Origin: Methanobacteriota archaeon
GTDB lineage: Archaea > Undinarchaeota > Undinarchaeia > Undinarchaeales > Undinarchaeaceae
Direction of reading: 5' to 3'
NCBI GenBank assembly: GCA_002687935.1
Contig: NZBN01000007.1
Span: forward strand, 37,030-101,029
Length of the DNA: 64,000 bases
Below are positions 234-30,028 of this stretch, one piece after another. Made by a program: the position numbers and the translations under genes. A model generated the notes under the pieces. The model worked only from the letters and a program-made list of their open reading frames with translations. It was not told where the DNA came from and did not search any database. Within the stretch, counting starts at the first letter, position 1; each line of letters begins with the position of its first letter.

Positions 234-1577
234 ATGAGAAAGTATCTAAAAAGACCAAAAGTAGGTATGGAAGTCGAGTTGTTTACTCTAGACAATAATG
301 GAATTCCAGTTCCTGCTGTAGATAAATTGATTAAGAATTGTTCTGTGCAGAAGCGGCAATACGCAATACAAAGAGAATATGCAAAACACCTGCTCGAGAT
401 TGGTGCCTTCCCAACAATACAGGTTAGAAATCTTGCCTTAAGTTTCCTTGAAAATTTAGAGGCAGTTACAGAGACTGCTGAAGAACAGGATTTATTTCTA
501 TATCCTTTGGGAACCTATCCTGGAAAATTTACAGCAGAAGTCAGAAGAGAGTATTCTCATGTCGTACAAGAGAAAGTTATTGGTGAAGAAGTTAAAAATA
601 TAGCTCCAAAGGTCGCAGGTTTCCACTTCCATTACGGTCTTCCAAGAGGAATTCTCAATCGCTCGACATATGAGCTTAGAATGACAAAAAATCCAAAGGA
701 GAGGGAGGCATTTTTGAGTGAATATAATTTTTTGATAGCGGCCGACCCGGCTCTGACTACCTTTATGCAATCTTCACCTTTCTTTGAAGGGAAGCTCTTA
801 GGAAAGGACAGCAGAACTTTGCTGTATCGTGATATGAAAAGCAAAGTTAATGATGAAATTATAAGAGGAATTTACAGAGAAGAGAGAACTTTTGGAAGAA
901 TTCCGCGTTATGCTAATACGATTGCAGACTTAAACTTCCTTGTTGAGAAGCGCAGAAGTAGCTGGGAAGCCTTGATGAAGGATGCTGGTATGTCCTATAA
1001 GAAAATTTCACACAGGAAAAAACCACTTGACTTGTATTGGGGTCCTGTAAGGATTAACAAGCTCGGAACTTTAGAACAGCGTGGAATGGATATTAATGAG
1101 CCGAAATACGTTGTTGGAATTTCAATTCTCTTGAGGCATATACTCAGACAGATTAATAGGATGGATCTCAAAGTTAAGGCAAGCGATTTTGGTGCATACA
1201 AGCCCTTCAAACTGGAAGGCGATACTATTCATATAGCTCCCTTTTCAAAAGTTAAAAATGACTTGCAGTATAAGTCTGCGCTGGATGGTCTAGAGGACAA
1301 GGAAATTTTGCATTATTGCCAAAGCTTCTATCGTCTGGCAAAGAAATTTATAGAACATGACAGAGGTCTTGCTCTCAAATCAATCAAAAATATGCTAAAG
1401 ACAAAAAGAACCAAATCTGATATGGTAATCAGAGCTGCAAAGCGAAAGGGCTACTCTGGTGATTCTGAACTGCCTCAGGAAGTTGCTGCAGAAATAGCCA
1501 TAAAATACTCTAAAAAATTCATCACAGAAATAGAAAAAACCAAATCAGATATCAAAAATATCAGCTTAGATGATTAA
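234..1577 (+). CDS. glutamate-cysteine ligase family 2 (GCS2/YbdK-like) carboxylate-amine ligase
   Basis: GMEVELF, LLEI, GFHFHYG, SSPFFEG and WGPVRINKLGTLEQRGMD motifs. ATG at 234 directly follows the upstream stop; the ORF track starts at 210. Confidence 0.7.
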   Translation: MRKYLKRPKVGMEVELFTLDNNGIPVPAVDKLIKNCSVQKRQYAIQREYAKHLLEIGAFPTIQVRNLALSFLENLEAVTETAEEQDLFLYPLGTYPGKFTAEVRREYSHVVQEKVIGEEVKNIAPKVAGFHFHYGLPRGILNRSTYELRMTKNPKEREAFLSEYNFLIAADPALTTFMQSSPFFEGKLLGKDSRTLLYRDMKSKVNDEIIRGIYREERTFGRIPRYANTIADLNFLVEKRRSSWEALMKDAGMSYKKISHRKKPLDLYWGPVRINKLGTLEQRGMDINEPKYVVGISILLRHILRQINRMDLKVKASDFGAYKPFKLEGDTIHIAPFSKVKNDLQYKSALDGLEDKEILHYCQSFYRLAKKFIEHDRGLALKSIKNMLKTKRTKSDMVIRAAKRKGYSGDSELPQEVAAEIAIKYSKKFITEIEKTKSDIKNISLDD

Positions 1578-1701: not shown

Positions 1702-3435
1702 CTACATACGTTCAGGAATCCGTATTCCGAGCAAGTAGAGGCATCTTCCGAGTGTATTGTAAACAGACTGTACGAGAAGTATCCTCGCCTTCCTCACGTC
1801 CTTATCCGTTTCCTTCAGTACAGGATGCTGAGCATAGAATGCGTTAAATTTTTCCGCCAAGTGTATAGAATAGTTTGCGATTATATCTGGCCTGTAATTC
1901 TTTGAAGCTTCCCTTACAGCCATTGGAAATTTACTAAGGTGCTTTATTATTTCATATTCCTCATCGTTTGGAACCTTCATGTCAACTTTAGCGGGGTCAG
2001 GGAATTTTTTAACATCTTCAAGTATATGCATTGATCTTACCGTGGCATACTGTAGATAAGGTCCCGTTTCTCCTTCAAATTCAAGTGAGCGTTCCCAGTC
2101 AAAGAATATAGTTTTATTATTTCCAATGTTCAGCATCTGGAATTTCATTGCCCCTAAAGATATATCCAATGCTATCTTCCTCTGCATTCTCGGATCTATG
2201 TCAGGATTCCTCAGCATAACTTCCTCAAGCGCCTTTTCGAACATGCGGTTTTTCATTTCCGAGTAAAGTATTGAAGTTCCTTCTCTGGATGACATCTTCC
2301 CGGAAGCAAGTGTAACAAGGTCGTATGGTATGTGTTTGCATTTATCCGCGTTCTTGAATTTCATCTTCTTAAGCACATTAAAGAGCTGCTGGAAGTGAAG
2401 CCTCTGCTCTGAGCCGGTTATGTATATTGACTTGTCAATTCCATAATCTTCAAATTTAGTTTTTGCCAGAGCAAGGTCCTTTGTCGAATACAAAGCAGTT
2501 CCGTCTGAACGAAGAATCAGGAAAATACCGAGCTTCTCCGGTTTTTCCATATTTATGATAATAGCACCGTCACTTTTCTTTGCTATTTTTTCCTTAAGGA
2601 GCTCCTGTACTATCTCCTTCCCTGGCTTTTCCATCTGGCTTTCAAAGAACCACACATCAAAATGAGCGTCCAAATCTTCGTATATCTTATTGAAATCATT
2701 TATAGACCACTGCTTGGTTTCATTCCAGAGTTGCATTAGGTCTCCATCACTTTCGTCCTCGAGATTTCTGAGAACTTCTTCAACTTCTTTCTTATAGTCT
2801 GGATATTGTTCTATTTTTTCACAGGCTTCAGTGTAGAGCTTGCCCAGCCATTCTCCCTTGCTTTCCCGTGGAACTTCCCCTTCGTGGAATTTTCTATAAC
2901 ACCATAGGACCTTTGCTACATGCGCTCCGACATCTCCAGGGTAGTTCGCCTGAACAACTTCATATCCGGACTGCCTTAGTATCCTTGAAAGGCTCTCTCC
3001 TAGGGAAGTTCCTCTCAAATGTCCTATATGGAAAGCTTTGTGCGTATTCGCCTGACTGTATTCAACCATCACTTTCTCTTCCTGCGGAAGGTTTTGTCCA
3101 TAATCAGTTTTTACAGCTTCTTTCAGAACACTTCCCATAAACAAATCTTTCTTGAAGAAGAAATTAACATAGGCTCCTGCAAGCTTAACCTTTGAGCAGG
3201 ACTTCGGTTTTTTGATATTAGCAAGTATCTTTTCCGCAAATTCTCTCGGACTTTTTCTCTTCAGTTTTCCCAGCGGGAAAGAAACACTGCATGCAAGGTC
3301 TCCCATTTTATAACTTGGAGGTTCTTCAATAGTTCTTTCAATTTCCACTTGTGGCTTTAGTTTTAGCTTTTTCAGAACTTCTTTTACTGCTTCTACAACT
3401 TCTTCCCGTGCTTCCATCCAAGGGTCTGGTATCAA
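1702..3435 (-). CDS. argS: arginyl-tRNA synthetase; true start uncertain, may be fused to the upstream Lys-rich ORF
   Basis: HIGH motif (FHIGHLRG), KMSSR, FEGETGPYLQYA and anticodon-binding domain FNAFY. Confidence 0.97.
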   Translation of the reverse strand: MIPDPWMEAREEVVEAVKEVLKKLKLKPQVEIERTIEEPPSYKMGDLACSVSFPLGKLKRKSPREFAEKILANIKKPKSCSKVKLAGAYVNFFFKKDLFMGSVLKEAVKTDYGQNLPQEEKVMVEYSQANTHKAFHIGHLRGTSLGESLSRILRQSGYEVVQANYPGDVGAHVAKVLWCYRKFHEGEVPRESKGEWLGKLYTEACEKIEQYPDYKKEVEEVLRNLEDESDGDLMQLWNETKQWSINDFNKIYEDLDAHFDVWFFESQMEKPGKEIVQELLKEKIAKKSDGAIIINMEKPEKLGIFLILRSDGTALYSTKDLALAKTKFEDYGIDKSIYITGSEQRLHFQQLFNVLKKMKFKNADKCKHIPYDLVTLASGKMSSREGTSILYSEMKNRMFEKALEEVMLRNPDIDPRMQRKIALDISLGAMKFQMLNIGNNKTIFFDWERSLEFEGETGPYLQYATVRSMHILEDVKKFPDPAKVDMKVPNDEEYEIIKHLSKFPMAVREASKNYRPDIIANYSIHLAEKFNAFYAQHPVLKETDKDVRKARILLVQSVYNTLGRCLYLLGIRIPERM

Positions 3436-5207: not shown

Positions 5208-8200
5208 TTATCGCTTTCTGTGATAATCCTGTAAGGACATTGCCTCGTTGTGGACTCCATTATACTTTCTGAATTTTATTGCCTCAAGAGCGGCACCCGC
5301 CCCTGACATTGTCGTTATACAGGGAATTGCGTGTTTTATACAGGCTCTCCGTATTTTATAACCGGCCCTCTCCCGGCTTCCTGCGGTTGTCGGTGTATTT
5401 ATCACCAAATCAATTCCCTTCTCTTTAATCATAGTGACTATATCTGGTATCCCTTCTCCGGATTTCAAAACCTTCTGTACTTTAATTCCATTAATTCTCA
5501 ACATTTTAGCGGTTCTTCCCGCTCCTGCTATTTTGAATCCCATATTTTCAAATTCCTTCGCAATTTCCACAGTCTCTTCTTTGTCTTTATTCCGTACAGC
5601 GAAGAAAATTTTGCCTTTTTCCGGAAGCTTCAGACCTGCTCCTAATTGAGCTTTATAATAAGCGATTGGAAAGTTATCAGCAATTCCCATAGTTTCTCCT
5701 GTGCTTTTCATCTCGGGTCCAAGTGCCGTATCTGAGCCTGGTATTTTGTTGAAAGGAAAAACAACTGATTTCACAGACACATGTTGGGTTTTTCCTGGCT
5801 CAGTACACCCAAGTTCTTTCAGACTTTTTCCAAGCATAACTCTTGCAGCAATTTTCGCAAGTTGAATTCCAGATGCTTTGCTTATGAAGGGGACAGTTCT
5901 ACTACTTCTTGGATTTACTTCCAGAACATAGACAATAGAATCTCTGACTGCATACTGTATATTCAAAAGACCCTTTATGTTGAGTTCCCTAGCAAGTTCC
6001 TCTGTATATTTCTTAATAGTCTTGATTTCTGCATCTGTCAAAGTTTGCGTCGGCGTTACACAACTTGAGTCCCCTGAATGAATTCCTGCCTGTTCTATAT
6101 GTTCCATTATACCACCTATCAATGTGTCAGTTCCGTCTGAAACCGCGTCTACATCTATTTCTGTTGCACTCCCTAAAAATTCGTCTATCAATACTGGGTG
6201 TTCCTTTGAAACCTTTACAGCCTCGTTAATATATCGTTCAAGATCTAAATCATTAAACACAATTTCCATTGCCCTTCCTCCTATCACATAACTTGGGCGT
6301 ATTAGAACCGGATATACAATTTTTTCTATTACTTCTCGTGCTTCCTCAAGGCTGTGAGCAATACCATTCTCTGCTTGCGGTATTCCCAATTTTTCTATAA
6401 TCTTTGAGAACTTATCCCTGTCCTCAGCTCGGTCCATGTCCTTCGGAGAAGTTCCCAATATATTCACACCCGCCTTTTCCAATAAAAGAGAAAGATTAAC
6501 AGAAGTCTGTCCTCCAAATTGTGTCATCACTCCGTAGGGCTTTTCATTATTAATTATTCTCATCACACTGCTAAATGTCAGTGGCTCGAAATAAAGACGG
6601 TCTGAAGTATCATAGTCTGTTGATACCGTCTCTGGATTATTGTTAATTATTATTGATTCAAAACCTTCTTTTTGTATCGCCCCAAGTGCATGAACAGTGG
6701 AGTAATCAAATTCAATTCCCTGCCCAATTCGTATAGGACCTGAACCAAGTATCATAATCTTCTTTTTATCTTCAGCTACTGCTTCATTCTCTCCTTCTGC
6801 AGAATAAAAGTAAGGTGTCTTTGCTTCAAACTCAGCTGCGCAAGTATCAACCATCTTGAAGCCCTCTATTTCTTCCCTTTCTAAAAACACTCTTTTAACT
6901 CCATTGAGGAACCAAGGGTCTATCTTGGTCAATTTGTGTATTTCTTCCACTGATACTCCTTTTTTCAGAGCGGATGCTATATAGAAAAGTCTTTTGTGCG
7001 TCGGTATTTCAAGCAGATAAAGATTTTCAAAATCCTCAAGACCTTCTTTCAAACTTTCTTTGTCAATATCAAGACTTGCTACAGCCTTTTCCAGACTCTC
7101 TTCAAAGGTTCTGCCTATTGCCATAACTTCACCAGTTGCCCGCATTTCAGTTCCCAATGTTCTGTCAGCAAGATGGAACTTCTCAAAAGGCCACCTTGGT
7201 ATCTTGGTTACAATATAATCAAGAGCAGGCTCAAAACTTGCCTTAGTCTCCTCAGTGATGGGATTGTCTATCTCATCAAGAGTCATTCCTATTGATATTT
7301 TCGCCGCAATAAGTGCTATTGGATACCCCGTCGCCTTTGATGCCAGAGCAGAGCTTCTGGAAACCCTCGGATTTACCTCTATCACAATATATCTGTTACT
7401 TTCTGGGTCAAGTGCAAACTGAATATTACAACCTCCCTCCACATTCAGAGCTCTGATTATTTTCAGAGATGCAGTCCTCAGCATCTGATATTCTTTATCG
7501 GTCAGAGTCTGTGATGGGGCGACAACTATACTGTCTCCAGTATGAATTCCCACTGGATCAAAATTTTCCATATTGCAGACAGTTATACAATTGTCTGCCG
7601 AATCCCGCATTACTTCATATTCTATTTCCTTCCAACCAGTGACACACTCTTCAATCAGAATCTGCCCAATCCTACTGTTCGCTATTCCTCCTGAGGATAT
7701 ACTTTCAAGTTCCCGCATATTTTCAGCTATCCCTCCACCTGTTCCTCCAAGCGTATATGCAGGTCTAACTATTACAGGAAATCCAACTTCTTCTGCTATC
7801 CGTTTTGATTCATCGACACTGGTTGCTATTCCTGATTTTGGTATAGGCTCGCCTATTTTAATCATCATATCTTTGAAAAGTTCCCTGTCTTCACAGTCCT
7901 TTATTGCCTTCAGCGGAGTTCCAAGTATCTCTACATTATTTTTTTCAAGAATTCCGGAATCTGCCAGCTCTGCAGTAAGATTAAGACCTGTTTGTCCCCC
8001 AAAACTGGACAGAACTCCGTCCGGCTTTTCCTTTTCAATTATTCTTTCAAGAGATTCAAGTGTCAGTGGCTCAATATATACAGAGTCCGCCATATCACTG
8101 TCAGTTTGTATAGTCGCAGGATTAGAATTCACTACTACAGTTTTCAGACCTTCTTCGCGCATTGACTTCAGAGCCTGCGACCCTGAATAATCAAATTCTG

Positions 8201-20169: not shown

Positions 20170-20463
20170 ATGGATTCGATTGTGAAAAAACAATTCAAAG
20201 TGGCAGGAGGCAAGCTCTTGAAAGCATCATTTTCTGTTGATGAGGGAAAACTGAAAGACGTAAAAATAACTGGTGATTTTTTTCTCTATCCTGAAGAAGC
20301 AATTGAAGGTCTTATTTTATCTCTCAATGACATTGAATTTGAAGAAAGTATAATTGAGAAAGCAGTTTCAGTATATCTAAAAGATAATAATGCTGAGTTT
20401 GTCGGTGCTTCTCCAAATGATGTGGCAAAACTCTTCACACAGGAAGTGGAGGATTCCAAATGA
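20170..20463 (+). CDS. lipoate-protein ligase accessory subunit (LplB/C-terminal domain)
   Basis: KVAGGKLLK, KITGDFFLYPEEAIE.L pattern. Confidence 0.85.
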   Translation: MDSIVKKQFKVAGGKLLKASFSVDEGKLKDVKITGDFFLYPEEAIEGLILSLNDIEFEESIIEKAVSVYLKDNNAEFVGASPNDVAKLFTQEVEDSK

Positions 20464-21446
20464 TAATTTCAAAGACTCCTCTCCGAGTAACCTTTGGAGG
20501 GGGTTGCACGGATTTCCCTTCATATTATGCAGACCATGGCGGTTTCCTAGTCAATGCCGCTATAGACAAATACACTTTTATTATTCTTCATCAAAAATTT
20601 GACAAGAAGATAAGGGCAAAATATTCTCTTTGTGAAGTTGTCGACAGCGTTGAAGAACTTAAGAATCCAATAATAAAAGAGGCTCTAAAATCTGTCGATT
20701 CTCCAACTGGAATAGAAATTGTCAGTCTTTCTGACATTCCAAAAGAAACTCAACTTGGACAGACTGGAAGTTATACAGTTGGGCTTCTCGAGGCTCTCAA
20801 TCAATGGAAGAACGAGCATATTCCTACAGAAGAGCTTGCGACAAAGTCCTGCAAAATACTAATTGATATTCTAAACAAACCTGTCGGAAAACAGGACCCA
20901 TATATCGCTGCCTATGGAGGTATAACTTGCTTTGATATTTCAAAAGATGGTGAAGTAAAAGCCTCTCCTTTGCAAATATCCAGCGAAACTACGGAAGAAT
21001 TGGAGAAGAACCTCCTTTTCTTCTTCACGGATTTTACCAAGGCATCTGCCGATATACTGGGTGAACAACTAAGTAAAGGGGGTAAACTCAGCAAAGAAGT
21101 TGAAGAAAATCTTCACAAGGTAAAGGATGTCAGCTACAGAATAAAGGAAGCTTTGGAAAAAGGGGATACTTCTGAATTTGGAAAGCTGTTAAGTGAGCAC
21201 TGGGGGCTGAAAAAGGCGCGTTCTCCAAGTTCTACAACTCCTCAAGTTGACAAGCTATATTCCTCTGCTTTGGAGAACGGAGCCATCGGAGGAAAATTAG
21301 TCGGTGCCGGAGGCGGAGGCTTCCTGATGTTTTATGCAGAAGATGCCGAAAAACTCAGAGAAACAATGGCTAAGGCTGGCGCAAGAGAAATGAAATTTGG
21401 TTTTGATTTTGAAGGCTCAAGAGTTATGCTCAACACTGAAGCTTGA
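20460..21446 (+). CDS. GHMP-kinase family protein (HddA/heptose-7-phosphate kinase-like) with degenerate ATP-binding loop
   Basis: KTPLRVTFGGGCTDFP, GKQD.Y.AAYGG and GGKLVGAGGGGF motifs; motif 2 reads PKETQLGQTGS. Confidence 0.85.
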   Translation: MIISKTPLRVTFGGGCTDFPSYYADHGGFLVNAAIDKYTFIILHQKFDKKIRAKYSLCEVVDSVEELKNPIIKEALKSVDSPTGIEIVSLSDIPKETQLGQTGSYTVGLLEALNQWKNEHIPTEELATKSCKILIDILNKPVGKQDPYIAAYGGITCFDISKDGEVKASPLQISSETTEELEKNLLFFFTDFTKASADILGEQLSKGGKLSKEVEENLHKVKDVSYRIKEALEKGDTSEFGKLLSEHWGLKKARSPSSTTPQVDKLYSSALENGAIGGKLVGAGGGGFLMFYAEDAEKLRETMAKAGAREMKFGFDFEGSRVMLNTEA

Positions 21447-21457
21447 AAGGGTTTAGT

Positions 21458-21516
21458 GTCTCAGACCGCCCATCATTCATCATCTGGTATCAGATCGATG
21501 TCGGATCTTCATCGAC
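21458..21516 (-). ncRNA. box C/D 2'-O-methylation guide sRNA (double guide)
   Basis: Minus strand: GTC-GATGA (C) AGATCCGACATCGAT CTGA (D') TACCAG ATGATGA (C') ATGATGGGCGGT CTGA (D) GAC. Both guides are complementary to universally conserved rRNA segments. Confidence 0.88.
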
Positions 21517-21588: not shown

Positions 21589-21888
21589 ATGGGGAAACGA
21601 AGAACACAGAAAGAAATAGAGGAGTATTGCAATTTTCTTTCTGCTCACATAGCTTCAAAGGAGTTTGGTGTGGCAATTAATTATTTTGAATCTTTAAATT
21701 CCTCATTAAAAGAAGCTGAAAAGTACATAAGCGGAAAAGATATCGAAGAAATAAATGAGCTTAAACTTCCACTCGTCAATGCTCTCCACCACACTTATAA
21801 TAGTTCCGAGGAAAAACAACAGAGCTGCGGGGAGTGTTTCGAAGACATCTTCAGCAAAATAAAGGAAGTGTTCAATATAGATAAATGA
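21589..21888 (+). CDS. hypothetical protein
   Basis: 99 aa helical ORF; ATGA overlap with the next gene. Confidence 0.55.
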   Translation: MGKRRTQKEIEEYCNFLSAHIASKEFGVAINYFESLNSSLKEAEKYISGKDIEEINELKLPLVNALHHTYNSSEEKQQSCGECFEDIFSKIKEVFNIDK

Positions 21889-22267: not shown

Positions 22268-23191
22268 ATGATTAGAGCTTCTGCACCGGGAAAATTAATT
22301 TTGTTCGGAGACCATGCTGTGGTCTATGGAGAACCGGGAATAGCCACTGCGATAAACAAGAGAGCATACTCTACTGCATGCGAATTGGATGGAAAAAAAA
22401 TTGTTGTTGAGTCCAAAGATACTGGAGAAACAACAGAATGTGGAATCAGGGAGAAGTCCAAGAATCCAATAATTGCCGCAGTTCAGGAAGCACAAAAATT
22501 CTCAAAAAGTCGGTCAGGTATTGGTATTGAAATAAATTCCCAAATTCCTATCGGTGCCGGACTTGGTTCATCTGCTGCCGTAGCAACAGCCACGATTGCT
22601 TCCGTCGCAACACTTCTCACTGGAAAGGAGCCGTCCACTATGGAGATTGCAGAGATGGCTTACAAAGCTGACAAACTGGCTCACGAAAGTCCAAGTGGCA
22701 TAGATACTGCTGTAACAAGTCTTGGTGGAACTATTTTTTTCAAAAAAGGAAACATAAGTCAGCTGGATTCTGAGCCTCTCACTTTAGTTGTAGCAAACAG
22801 TGGTGTCAGAAGGAACACCAGCGACATGGTTTTGAGAGTTAAAAACAGTATAAGGGATCCAAGAGTTGCCCTAAGTATGTTCAGCATAGGTTCCTTGTCA
22901 AAGGAAGCTCGAACAATTCTTCTTGGTAAGCGTCAGGGAGATCTTGGCCCTCTTATGGATCGTGGACAGTCCCTCTTGAAAGATTTGGGTGTCAGCTCTA
23001 CATCCCTCGAGGACCTGGTTCAGCTTGCAAAAGATTCTGGAGCAGTCGGCTCAAAAATAACTGGAGCTGGGGGTGGAGGTTGTATTATTTCACTATCAGA
23101 TAACCCTGAGACATTAATCCAGGCTTTCAAAGAAAGTGGTGCTTCTGCATATTCCGTAAGGACAAATCAGCCCGGTGTTAGAATTGACTGA
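22268..23191 (+). CDS. mvk: mevalonate kinase
   Basis: SAPGKLILFGDHAVVYG, PIGAGLGSSAA, PSGID, KITGAGGGG. Confidence 0.93.
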   Translation: MIRASAPGKLILFGDHAVVYGEPGIATAINKRAYSTACELDGKKIVVESKDTGETTECGIREKSKNPIIAAVQEAQKFSKSRSGIGIEINSQIPIGAGLGSSAAVATATIASVATLLTGKEPSTMEIAEMAYKADKLAHESPSGIDTAVTSLGGTIFFKKGNISQLDSEPLTLVVANSGVRRNTSDMVLRVKNSIRDPRVALSMFSIGSLSKEARTILLGKRQGDLGPLMDRGQSLLKDLGVSSTSLEDLVQLAKDSGAVGSKITGAGGGGCIISLSDNPETLIQAFKESGASAYSVRTNQPGVRID

Positions 23192-28412: not shown

Positions 28413-29378
28413 ATGTCAAAGCAAATAGTAGTCACTCCCTTTGGTATTTATTCCTCTGAAGGAGGTAAACTTAGCCTGGAGTCTGAGTTTTCAACCAGTC
28501 CAGCTGAGGCGGCAAAAACTCTGAGGAACTATGAAAAAACAGAAACTTTGCCTGAATTAGACGTCCTTCTTGAGTCTGGAGCTGAATTTTCAGCAGACAG
28601 CGAAGCTTCAATAGATGCCAGATTGCGTCTCGATGAACTCGCAAAGGAGAGAGGGATTGATTTAGATAAATATATTCACGCTCTTAACCAGGAACTTACA
28701 AAACTGAGGATGCATGAAGAGCTGGCTTCCCCTGACAGAAGAATTATCCAGGCTGTCAACTCCCTTGAAGAGATGGACCCCCTTGTAAATGTTCTTTCTG
28801 AGAGACTCAGAGAATGGTCTTCTTTATATTCTCCAGAGCTCAGTCGCTCTGTACAGAAACATGATGATTTTTTGATAAAACTTTCCCAGCAAAAGGAAAT
28901 ATCCAGCGAACTTGGGGCAGTTTTCGAAAGGTCTGATACAGAAGTTCCCAAAGGTATAGCACATTCTCTCTCAGATATGTATGAAACACGAACCAGACTC
29001 CGCGAATACCTTGAGAAAATGATGAGGGAACACTATCCAAATCTCGAAGCTGTCGCTGGAAGTCACATTGGGGCTCAGCTTATGGCTCTTGTCGGAGGTG
29101 CCAAGCGTCTGGCAACAAAGCCTTCGAGCACAGTCCAGGTTCTTGGAGCTGAGAAGGCACTATTCAGGCACGTCACAACTGGGGCAAAGCCTCCAAAATA
29201 TGGAGTTCTTCTGCACCATCCTGTGATAAATGACCTTCCGAAACATCTTCGGGGGAAGGGAGCTCGGATTCTTGCAGGAAAAATATCCCTTGCAATAAGG
29301 GCTGATGTCTACGGCTCAGGCTTTTCAGCTGACAAACTCAATGAAAGCCTGGACAAGAGGATAAAAAATCTAAAATGA
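28413..29378 (+). CDS. nop5: C/D box RNP protein Nop5/Nop56
   Basis: LSERLREW, PNL..VAG..IGA.L, STVQVLGAEKALFRH, PPKYG. Confidence 0.93.
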   Translation: MSKQIVVTPFGIYSSEGGKLSLESEFSTSPAEAAKTLRNYEKTETLPELDVLLESGAEFSADSEASIDARLRLDELAKERGIDLDKYIHALNQELTKLRMHEELASPDRRIIQAVNSLEEMDPLVNVLSERLREWSSLYSPELSRSVQKHDDFLIKLSQQKEISSELGAVFERSDTEVPKGIAHSLSDMYETRTRLREYLEKMMREHYPNLEAVAGSHIGAQLMALVGGAKRLATKPSSTVQVLGAEKALFRHVTTGAKPPKYGVLLHHPVINDLPKHLRGKGARILAGKISLAIRADVYGSGFSADKLNESLDKRIKNLK

Positions 29379-30028
29379 AACTTCTAAAAAAACTCGGAAA
29401 AGAGTATGCAACTCTTAGCTTAGTTTCGGGCAGAAAGGTCTACGGAGAACGACTCAAAAAGATAGACGGAAAAGAATACAGATTCTGGGATTCTTACAGG
29501 TCAAAACTTTCAGCGGCGCTTACACTTGGTCTCAAGAATATGCACTTTGAAGAGGATTCAAGTGTTCTCTATCTTGGAGCCGCAAACGGAACAACTGCCA
29601 GTCACATATCTGACTTAGTTCCAAAGGGAACTGTATATTGTGTTGAGTTTTCCCCAAGAGCAATGGCGGACCTTTATCCACTTTGCAAAAAGAGGAAGAA
29701 TATGGTTCCTATACTCGCTGATGCAAATCGCCCAATCCAATACGCTCACCGCATCGGCCAAGTCGATATAGTTTACCAAGATGTTGCACAGCGCCATCAG
29801 GCTGACATTCTTATCAAAAATGCAAAAATGTTCCTCAAACCACGAGGCTGGACATATCTTATGGTAAAAGCCCGAAGTATAGACGTTTCTGAAAATCCAA
29901 ATAAGTTATTTAACATTCTCACAAATCAGCTTAGGTCAACATTCGACACTGAGGAAAAACTTAAGCTCGATCCCTACGAAAAAGACCATATGTGCATAGT
30001 TTCGAGGCTGAGAAAAACAATACGATGA
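29375..30028 (+). CDS. flpA: fibrillarin-like rRNA/tRNA 2'-O-methyltransferase
   Basis: VYGERL, YRSKL.AA, VLYLGAANGTT.SH.SD, VYQDVAQ. Confidence 0.95.
   Translation: MKLLKKLGKEYATLSLVSGRKVYGERLKKIDGKEYRFWDSYRSKLSAALTLGLKNMHFEEDSSVLYLGAANGTTASHISDLVPKGTVYCVEFSPRAMADLYPLCKKRKNMVPILADANRPIQYAHRIGQVDIVYQDVAQRHQADILIKNAKMFLKPRGWTYLMVKARSIDVSENPNKLFNILTNQLRSTFDTEEKLKLDPYEKDHMCIVSRLRKTIR

Follow-up and report, generated by a model that had tools for sequence, protein, structure and literature searches.

A 59-nt sequence on the minus strand of an Undinarchaeota genome is very probably an independently transcribed archaeal box C/D sRNA that guides 2'-O-methylation of two ribosomal nucleotides, Cm at the equivalent of Escherichia coli 16S C1402 and Am at the equivalent of 23S A2503. 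The sRNA gene lies in the window, that is, the whole 64,000-nt stretch of DNA that was analysed (C7:37030-101029), taken from a 667-kb source assembly of 11 contigs that is 86.6% complete and has ~40% G+C. The unit contains four boxes, two 12-nt guides and a terminal stem; both guides are complementary to the organism's own rRNA; the sequence is conserved among related genomes, where its terminal pairs covary; and the genome encodes L7Ae, Nop5 and fibrillarin. The double-guide C/D reading put forward in an initial annotation of this DNA is thus supported, as no sequence-level feature is lacking or unconserved and the genome encodes the protein partners. That the RNA is transcribed, assembles into an RNP and directs methylation of the two sites in this organism is inferred.

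Anatomy and setting of the 59-nt RNA

The sRNA gene is located inside a 142-nt gap separating two plus-strand genes (Table 1). The initial annotation had described a 59-nt minus-strand unit with its own TATA box; both the unit and a TATA box are present, and the D', C' and D boxes are where it had placed them. GHMP-kinase paralogues at 20460-21446 and 22268-23191 bracket the sRNA together with two small ORFs of 99 and 114 aa, both without a Pfam match.

Table 1. Coordinates of the sRNA, its neighbours, its protein partners and its rRNA targets. Positions are those of the window unless a contig or an rRNA is named.
Feature	Position	Strand	Remarks
Whole box C/D sRNA, 59 nt	21458-21516	-	read from 21516 to 21458: GUC, G, AUGAAGA (C), 12 nt, CUGA (D'), UACCAG, AUGAUGA (C'), 12 nt, CUGA (D), GAC
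Terminal stem, 5' strand GUC	21514-21516	-	partner is GAC at 21460-21458
C box AUGAAGA	21506-21512	-	corrected register; A, not U, at position 5
D' guide UCCGACAUCGAU, 12 nt	21494-21505	-	complementary to own 23S
D' box CUGA	21490-21493	-	invariant in 8/8 aligned homologues
D'-C' loop UACCAG, 6 nt	21484-21489	-	k-loop; just 5' of the C' box
C' box AUGAUGA	21477-21483	-
D guide AUGAUGGGCGGU, 12 nt	21465-21476	-	complementary to own 16S
D box CUGA	21461-21464	-	CAGA in family f4, offset by U at C-box position 5
Terminal stem, 3' strand GAC	21458-21460	-	directly adjoins the D box
TATA box TTTATAA	21540-21546	-	centred ~27 nt upstream of the 5' stem
GHMP-kinase gene	ends 21446	+	one flank of the sRNA
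99-aa ORF	starts 21589	+	other flank of the sRNA; no Pfam match
Nop5	28413-29378	+	Nop domain PF01798, E 3.7e-44
Fibrillarin	29375-30028	+	PF01269, E 3.5e-80; start overlaps the Nop5 stop by four bases
L7Ae	C8:1430-1702		elsewhere in the genome
16S gene	C7:117738-119201	-	outside the window
23S gene	C7:114469-117442	-	outside the window
Site paired with the D guide AUGAUGGGCGGU	own 16S 1333-1343		11 bp: 10 Watson-Crick and 1 G-U; N+5 = own C1337 = E. coli C1402
Site paired with the D' guide UCCGACAUCGAU	own 23S 2583-2592		10 Watson-Crick bp; N+5 = own A2586 = E. coli A2503
Second double-guide C/D sRNA	C10:24039-24097	+	C box AAUGAAGA; TTTATAC ~27 nt upstream; outside the window

The C box was the element that had to be moved. 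It had been read as UCGAUGA, which is off by 3 nt from the true register, AUGAAGA. With UCGAUGA, the spacer would be 15 nt, there would be no room for a terminal stem or for the three-nucleotide bulge of a kink-turn, and relatives do not have GAUGA at that place. The AUGAAGA register results in 12-nt spacers on both sides, a G-A-U bulge and a GUC/GAC stem, and it is also the one picked by the Infernal alignment to snoPyro_CD. Relatives carry AAUGAAGU or AAUGAUGU here, and as AUGAAGA is the only register conserved among them, it was assigned as the C box. With this assignment, the C-D' and C'-D spacers are 12 nt in all eight homologues. AUGAAGA departs from the C-box consensus at position 5, and UGAAGA boxes occur in published sRNAs of Nanoarchaeum equitans and Sulfolobus. 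Together, the terminal boxes AUGAAGA and CUGA fit a kink-turn, with the tandem G.A pairs followed by a pair between C-box position 5 and D-box position 2 and then by a G-C pair. The terminal stem has just 3 bp in this genome, and the T run downstream is limited to TTT. The internal fold of the sRNA is not better than that of shuffled sequences (z = -0.43); this is expected for the C/D class, and the fold was not counted as evidence.

The genes for Nop5 and fibrillarin, said in the initial annotation to lie about 7 kb away, were identified by profile search at a distance of 6.9 kb from the sRNA.

Conservation and covariation within the order

A BLAST query of 181 nt around the locus was searched against 40 relatives. 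Full-length matches were obtained in two genomes of the same genus, and four further genomes of the same order (G004, G006, G009 and G012) matched query positions 85-144 only, which is exactly the sRNA without its flanks; genomes of other phyla matched the shorter part from the C' box through the guide to the D box. A pattern search added the homologues of family f4 (G005, G008 and G011). Both guides are kept with 12/12 spacing in 10 other genomes of Undinarchaeales. In the three genomes of family f2 (G003, G007 and G010, 78-98% complete), neither guide pattern was found, though the 16S target sequence is present, and in these the sRNA could have been lost or could have diverged.

Covariation was measured on an alignment of eight sequences over seven pairs, five in the terminal stem and two at the Watson-Crick positions of the kink-turn. 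Paired cells amounted to 91%, compared to 60% in column shuffles, and in six of the seven pairs, including all five of the stem, both members change. The covariation score of 0.745 (vs 0.22) was reached by none of 500 shuffles, and all of these measures collapse once the columns of the 3' partner are shifted by 1 to 3 positions. The pair between C-box position 5 and D-box position 2 is normally a U.U mismatch in the kink-turn. Here it is A-U in five homologues of families f1, f3 and f5 (AUGAAG... with CUGA) and U-A in the three f4 homologues (AUGAUGU with CAGA). The f4 loci in question (L151 in G011, L152 in G008 and L153 in G005) thus carry a compensated swap at the 3b.3n position relative to the A-U of the window's lineage.

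Across the eight homologues, no change was seen in the G, A and G of the C box or in the D-box GA, while the terminal stem ranges from 3 to 5 bp among relatives and the D'-C' loop from 4 to 12 nt with the boxes fixed. In G012 (L149:1485-1556), the 12-nt D'-C' loop can form a UCC-GAAA-GGA hairpin, and the C' box is the variant AUGUAGA. A TTTATA-type element starts 27-30 nt upstream of the 5' stem in seven of the eight aligned homologues, the eighth (G006) having a weaker CTTAAAG, and an oligo-T run directly follows the 3' stem in all homologues except those of the present genus. The TATA box and, among relatives, these T runs lend indirect support to expression as a stable RNA.

The initial annotation had argued that the exact match of the D guide to a known modified site speaks against chance. 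That the sRNA exceeds chance is settled by conservation and covariation; the pairing of the D guide by itself would not carry the argument, as it was reached by 49 of 2000 shuffled guides (2.5%), making this match, taken alone, only moderately improbable. Shuffled versions of the D' guide paired as well as the real one in 8 of 2000 cases, and given these two frequencies, the D and D' matches taken together are clearly beyond chance.

Ribosomal targets and distribution of the guides

The complement of the D guide, predicted in the initial annotation as an 11-nt pairing with one G-U, is present in the organism's own 16S as ACCGCCCGUCA. On the annotated E. coli rrs/rrl locus, ACCGCCCGUCA corresponds to 16S 1398-1408 and its fifth base is C1402, which verifies the numbering behind the N+5 prediction for the equivalent own nucleotide, C1337. 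For the D' guide, UCGAUGUCGG begins at 23S position 2500 of the annotated E. coli rrn operon, and its A is A2503. Only ~295 nt separate the neighbouring 16S and 23S genes, which share a strand, and a single primary transcript could thus contain the two target sites of the sRNA.

A strict whole-genome scan for double-guide C/D units yielded five matches, compared to none in a shuffled genome. Two of the five are credible, the RNA under study and a second sRNA on contig C10 (Table 1). Among the ribose methylations of the large subunit, Um2552 has the widest conservation. In the C10 sRNA, the D' guide AGUGAACACCCU forms 10 Watson-Crick base pairs with the organism's own 23S and places N+5 on the U2552 equivalent (own U2635), so that the N+5 rule has a positive control within this genome; the 14-nt D guide of the C10 sRNA had no convincing target. 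N. equitans sR10 (PMC4644070 supplement) has an identical D' guide, AGUGAACACCCU, and a UGAAGA-type variant box; it is distinct from the RNA under study and serves as a control for the N+5 rule at Um2552 and for the box variant. Other box-like scan matches were rejected, C6:40312-40411 and C8:42311-42458 as lying in GAT-rich direct repeats resembling sequence that codes for acidic residues, and C3:34674-34730 as unconvincing. A box C/D-like string on the minus strand at window positions 6506-6566 falls within an ORF of 1020 aa and is a coding false positive of motif scans. Looser genome-wide scans added nothing beyond coding false positives.

Infernal aligned the sRNA end to end to three Pyrococcus families of the same architecture, sR2 (RF01139, 24.7 bits), sR49 (RF01303, 24.5 bits) and snoPyro_CD (RF00095, 23.8 bits), with E-values of 0.001-0.006 for a 301-nt stretch. 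The guides differ from those of the 59-nt unit, however, and the scores are far under the gathering scores of 42-50. No curated Rfam C/D family reached its gathering score (best 24.7 bits vs 42), and at gathering level Rfam reported only tRNAs over the window.

In yeast, the snoRNA snR70 guides Cm1639. A review table lists P. abyssi Cm1369 as the same nucleotide as yeast Cm1639, human Cm1703 and E. coli Cm1402 (PMC11542601), and Cm1402 has been measured by RiboMeth-seq in the DPANN archaeon N. equitans (PMC5389701). Guides for this site are carried by Methanopyrus kandleri sR114 and Sulfolobus acidocaldarius sR122, both catalogued by RNA-seq (Dennis et al. 2015, PMC4644070), which share with the present sRNA the core GAUGGGCGG in the same register, N+5 at the C1402 equivalent and U opposite G1405. 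In these two RNAs, unlike the one described here, the guide is at the D' position by variant D' boxes (CCGA, UUGA) and the second guides are others, and homology is limited to the boxes and the guide. As both the C1402 site and its guide are well known in Archaea and not new, the sRNA is less novel than the initial annotation implied. Eukaryotic SNORD43 (U43), yeast snR70 and plant AtU43 act by the same fibrillarin mechanism on the same rRNA nucleotide (18S Cm1703, Cm1639 and Cm1645, respectively; the equivalence of the sites is tabulated in PMC11542601). The sRNA does not belong to their sequence family, as the SNORD43 model matches it at 15.5 bits against a gathering score of 45, in the guide region only, and the eukaryotic RNAs are longer and nucleolar. 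Bacterial RsmI makes the same ribose methylation at the same nucleotide, the 2'-O-methyl of m4Cm1402 (PMC2831307, PMC11542601), but does so as a protein without a guide RNA, and bacteria add the N4 methyl through RsmH.

The spread of the guide was examined with a module defined as ...UGAYGGGCG-NN directly before CUGA and 12 nt after a C or C' box, a definition that includes the organism's own sRNA. The module was found in at least 74 of 201 archaeal genomes of a family-balanced sample, with no control matches. The base opposite G1405 is U in 65 of these 74 genomes and C in nine, and the ability of both to pair with G favours 16S as the target. When the C'-end, guide and CUGA were searched for in one genome from each prokaryotic species, at least 120 records were returned; among the matches listed, 119 of 120 are archaeal by title, and their lineages include Methanobrevibacter, Methanobacterium, Thermoplasmata, Archaeoglobi, Altiarchaeota, Aenigmatarchaeota, Iainarchaeum and Undinarchaeales, among others. 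One record titled "uncultured Clostridium sp." (L088, CABRLN010000067.1) contains a Methanobrevibacter-type C/D sRNA with the same layout as the archaeal records and is probably a contig of archaeal origin that was mis-binned into a bacterial MAG. The module occupies the D position in most lineages and the D' position in Archaeoglobi. Across the loci (L024-L143), the second guide varies by lineage, for example ACCCUAUGAGCU in Methanobacteriales and ...AGAACCAGC in many Thermoplasmata, and such changing of partner guides is what Breuer et al. 2021 described as guide shuffling.

The D' guide has a much narrower distribution. In bacteria, RlmN and Cfr methylate the base of A2503. As no paper reporting a methylated ribose at A2503, whatever the organism, was found in the literature search, the D' prediction is drawn from complementarity and conservation. 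The pattern CGACAUCGA-N-CUGA was found in 13 of the phylum's 17 genomes and gave no control matches, and in G013, G014 and G016 the A2503 guide resides in other sRNAs with other partner guides. The corresponding 14-mer also occurs in 37 of 384 other archaeal genomes. All 30 of the outside-phylum matches inspected (~15 further places were left out) lack an sRNA layout and resemble coding sequence, for example with a recurring GAC-ATC-GAN-CTG; one of these loci has a box-like heptamer 13 nt upstream, yet it is homologous to three matches that have no box. As far as sampled, the A2503 guide as an sRNA thus appears specific to the phylum. It is not in the seven-species catalogue of Dennis et al. 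(PMC4644070), in which I. hospitalis sR204 pairs near the A2503 site in a different register.

Mechanism, alternative explanations and significance

By the known mechanism of the family, L7Ae would bind the terminal C/D kink-turn and the internal C'/D' k-loop, and Nop5 and fibrillarin would assemble on the L7Ae-bound motifs. Each 12-nt guide would then pair with pre-rRNA, and fibrillarin would methylate the 2'-OH of the nucleotide that pairs with the fifth guide residue, counted upstream from the D or D' box. Because of this N+5 mechanism, the D guide is predicted to direct Cm at the 16S C1402 equivalent in the P-site decoding centre, and the D' guide Am at the 23S A2503 equivalent in the peptidyl-transferase loop at the tunnel entrance.

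It would be extremely improbable for the locus to make no stable RNA, with the boxes being due to chance or the block acting as a DNA or mRNA element for the plus-strand genes on either side, for instance as promoter or leader for the 99-aa ORF that starts at 21589, or as terminator for the GHMP-kinase gene. The block does sit between two plus-strand genes, and the 20 sequencing runs listed as containing the locus are DNA metagenomes (marine, seawater and hydrothermal-vent) with no RNA run among them. However, conservation ends at the ends of the sRNA while the flanks diverge, homologues occur in other sequence contexts, and covariation keeps the pairing of a minus-strand RNA; in addition, no such unit arose in the shuffled genome, and the guide modules recur across archaeal phyla, always beside C/D boxes. 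Very improbable as well is a stable RNA whose D guide has its true target in an RNA other than 16S, for example one with a perfect complement that has A in the place of G1405, the match to C1402 being coincidental. In favour of this reading, the U opposite G1405 is kept in 65 of 74 lineages, and the second guide position is in many lineages an A that mismatches C1399. Apart from the sRNA gene, however, no perfect complement of the guide was found in the organism's own genome (a 10-mer of it has one further copy on contig C10, outside the screened rRNA and tRNA genes), and no tRNA or 23S site of this genome equals the 16S site in pairing. The C found in the other nine lineages pairs with G and not with A, and Cm1402 has been measured in an archaeon (PMC5389701).

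An unlikely but more substantial alternative accepts a genuine C/D sRNP and holds that one or both guides act mainly as a folding chaperone of pre-rRNA, or as a tether that holds two parts of one primary transcript, the decoding region of 16S and the peptidyl-transferase loop of 23S; methylation would then be slight or absent, especially at A2503. Such roles have been proposed for double guides (PMC4644070, PMC7994747), the two targets here are on different rRNAs of one adjacent 16S-23S operon, and no published Am2503 was found. On the other hand, both guides hold their exact register to the D or D' box across families, which matters for methylation and not for tethering, and the measurement of Cm1402 in N. 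equitans (PMC5389701) shows that methylation does take place at the first of these sites in an archaeon. The occurrence of the two guides apart from each other in the sRNAs of G013, G014 and G016 indicates that they were selected one by one and not as a bridging pair. A methylation guide with two rRNA targets is the preferred reading of this sRNA.

The literature search found no description of C/D sRNAs in Undinarchaeota, and the present sRNA adds a well-supported guide RNA gene to this phylum. The Cm1402 guide that it carries is among the most widely retained archaeal guides, and at this one decoding-centre nucleotide an archaeal guide RNA is thereby linked with the sites of bacterial RsmI and eukaryotic U43/snR70. 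There is also value for annotation, as Rfam misses the sRNA and a simple guide-plus-box pattern recovers it in many archaeal lineages.

The partner D' guide is the more interesting lead, being apparently phylum-specific and predicting a testable Am2503 in a genome whose guide set seems to be very small; together with the clean A-U/U-A covariation of the kink-turn, these features give the locus a modest additional interest. The scans reported here found two stand-alone sRNAs with three clear rRNA guides. All three point at functional hot spots of the ribosome, C1402 at P-site decoding, U2552 in the A loop and A2503 in the peptidyl-transferase loop and tunnel entrance. It is conceivable, though we would stop short of calling it probable, that Undinarchaeota, with genomes of <1 Mb, may keep only a few fibrillarin guides aimed at C1402, U2552 and A2503, in which case the phylum-specific A2503 guide would specify Am2503.
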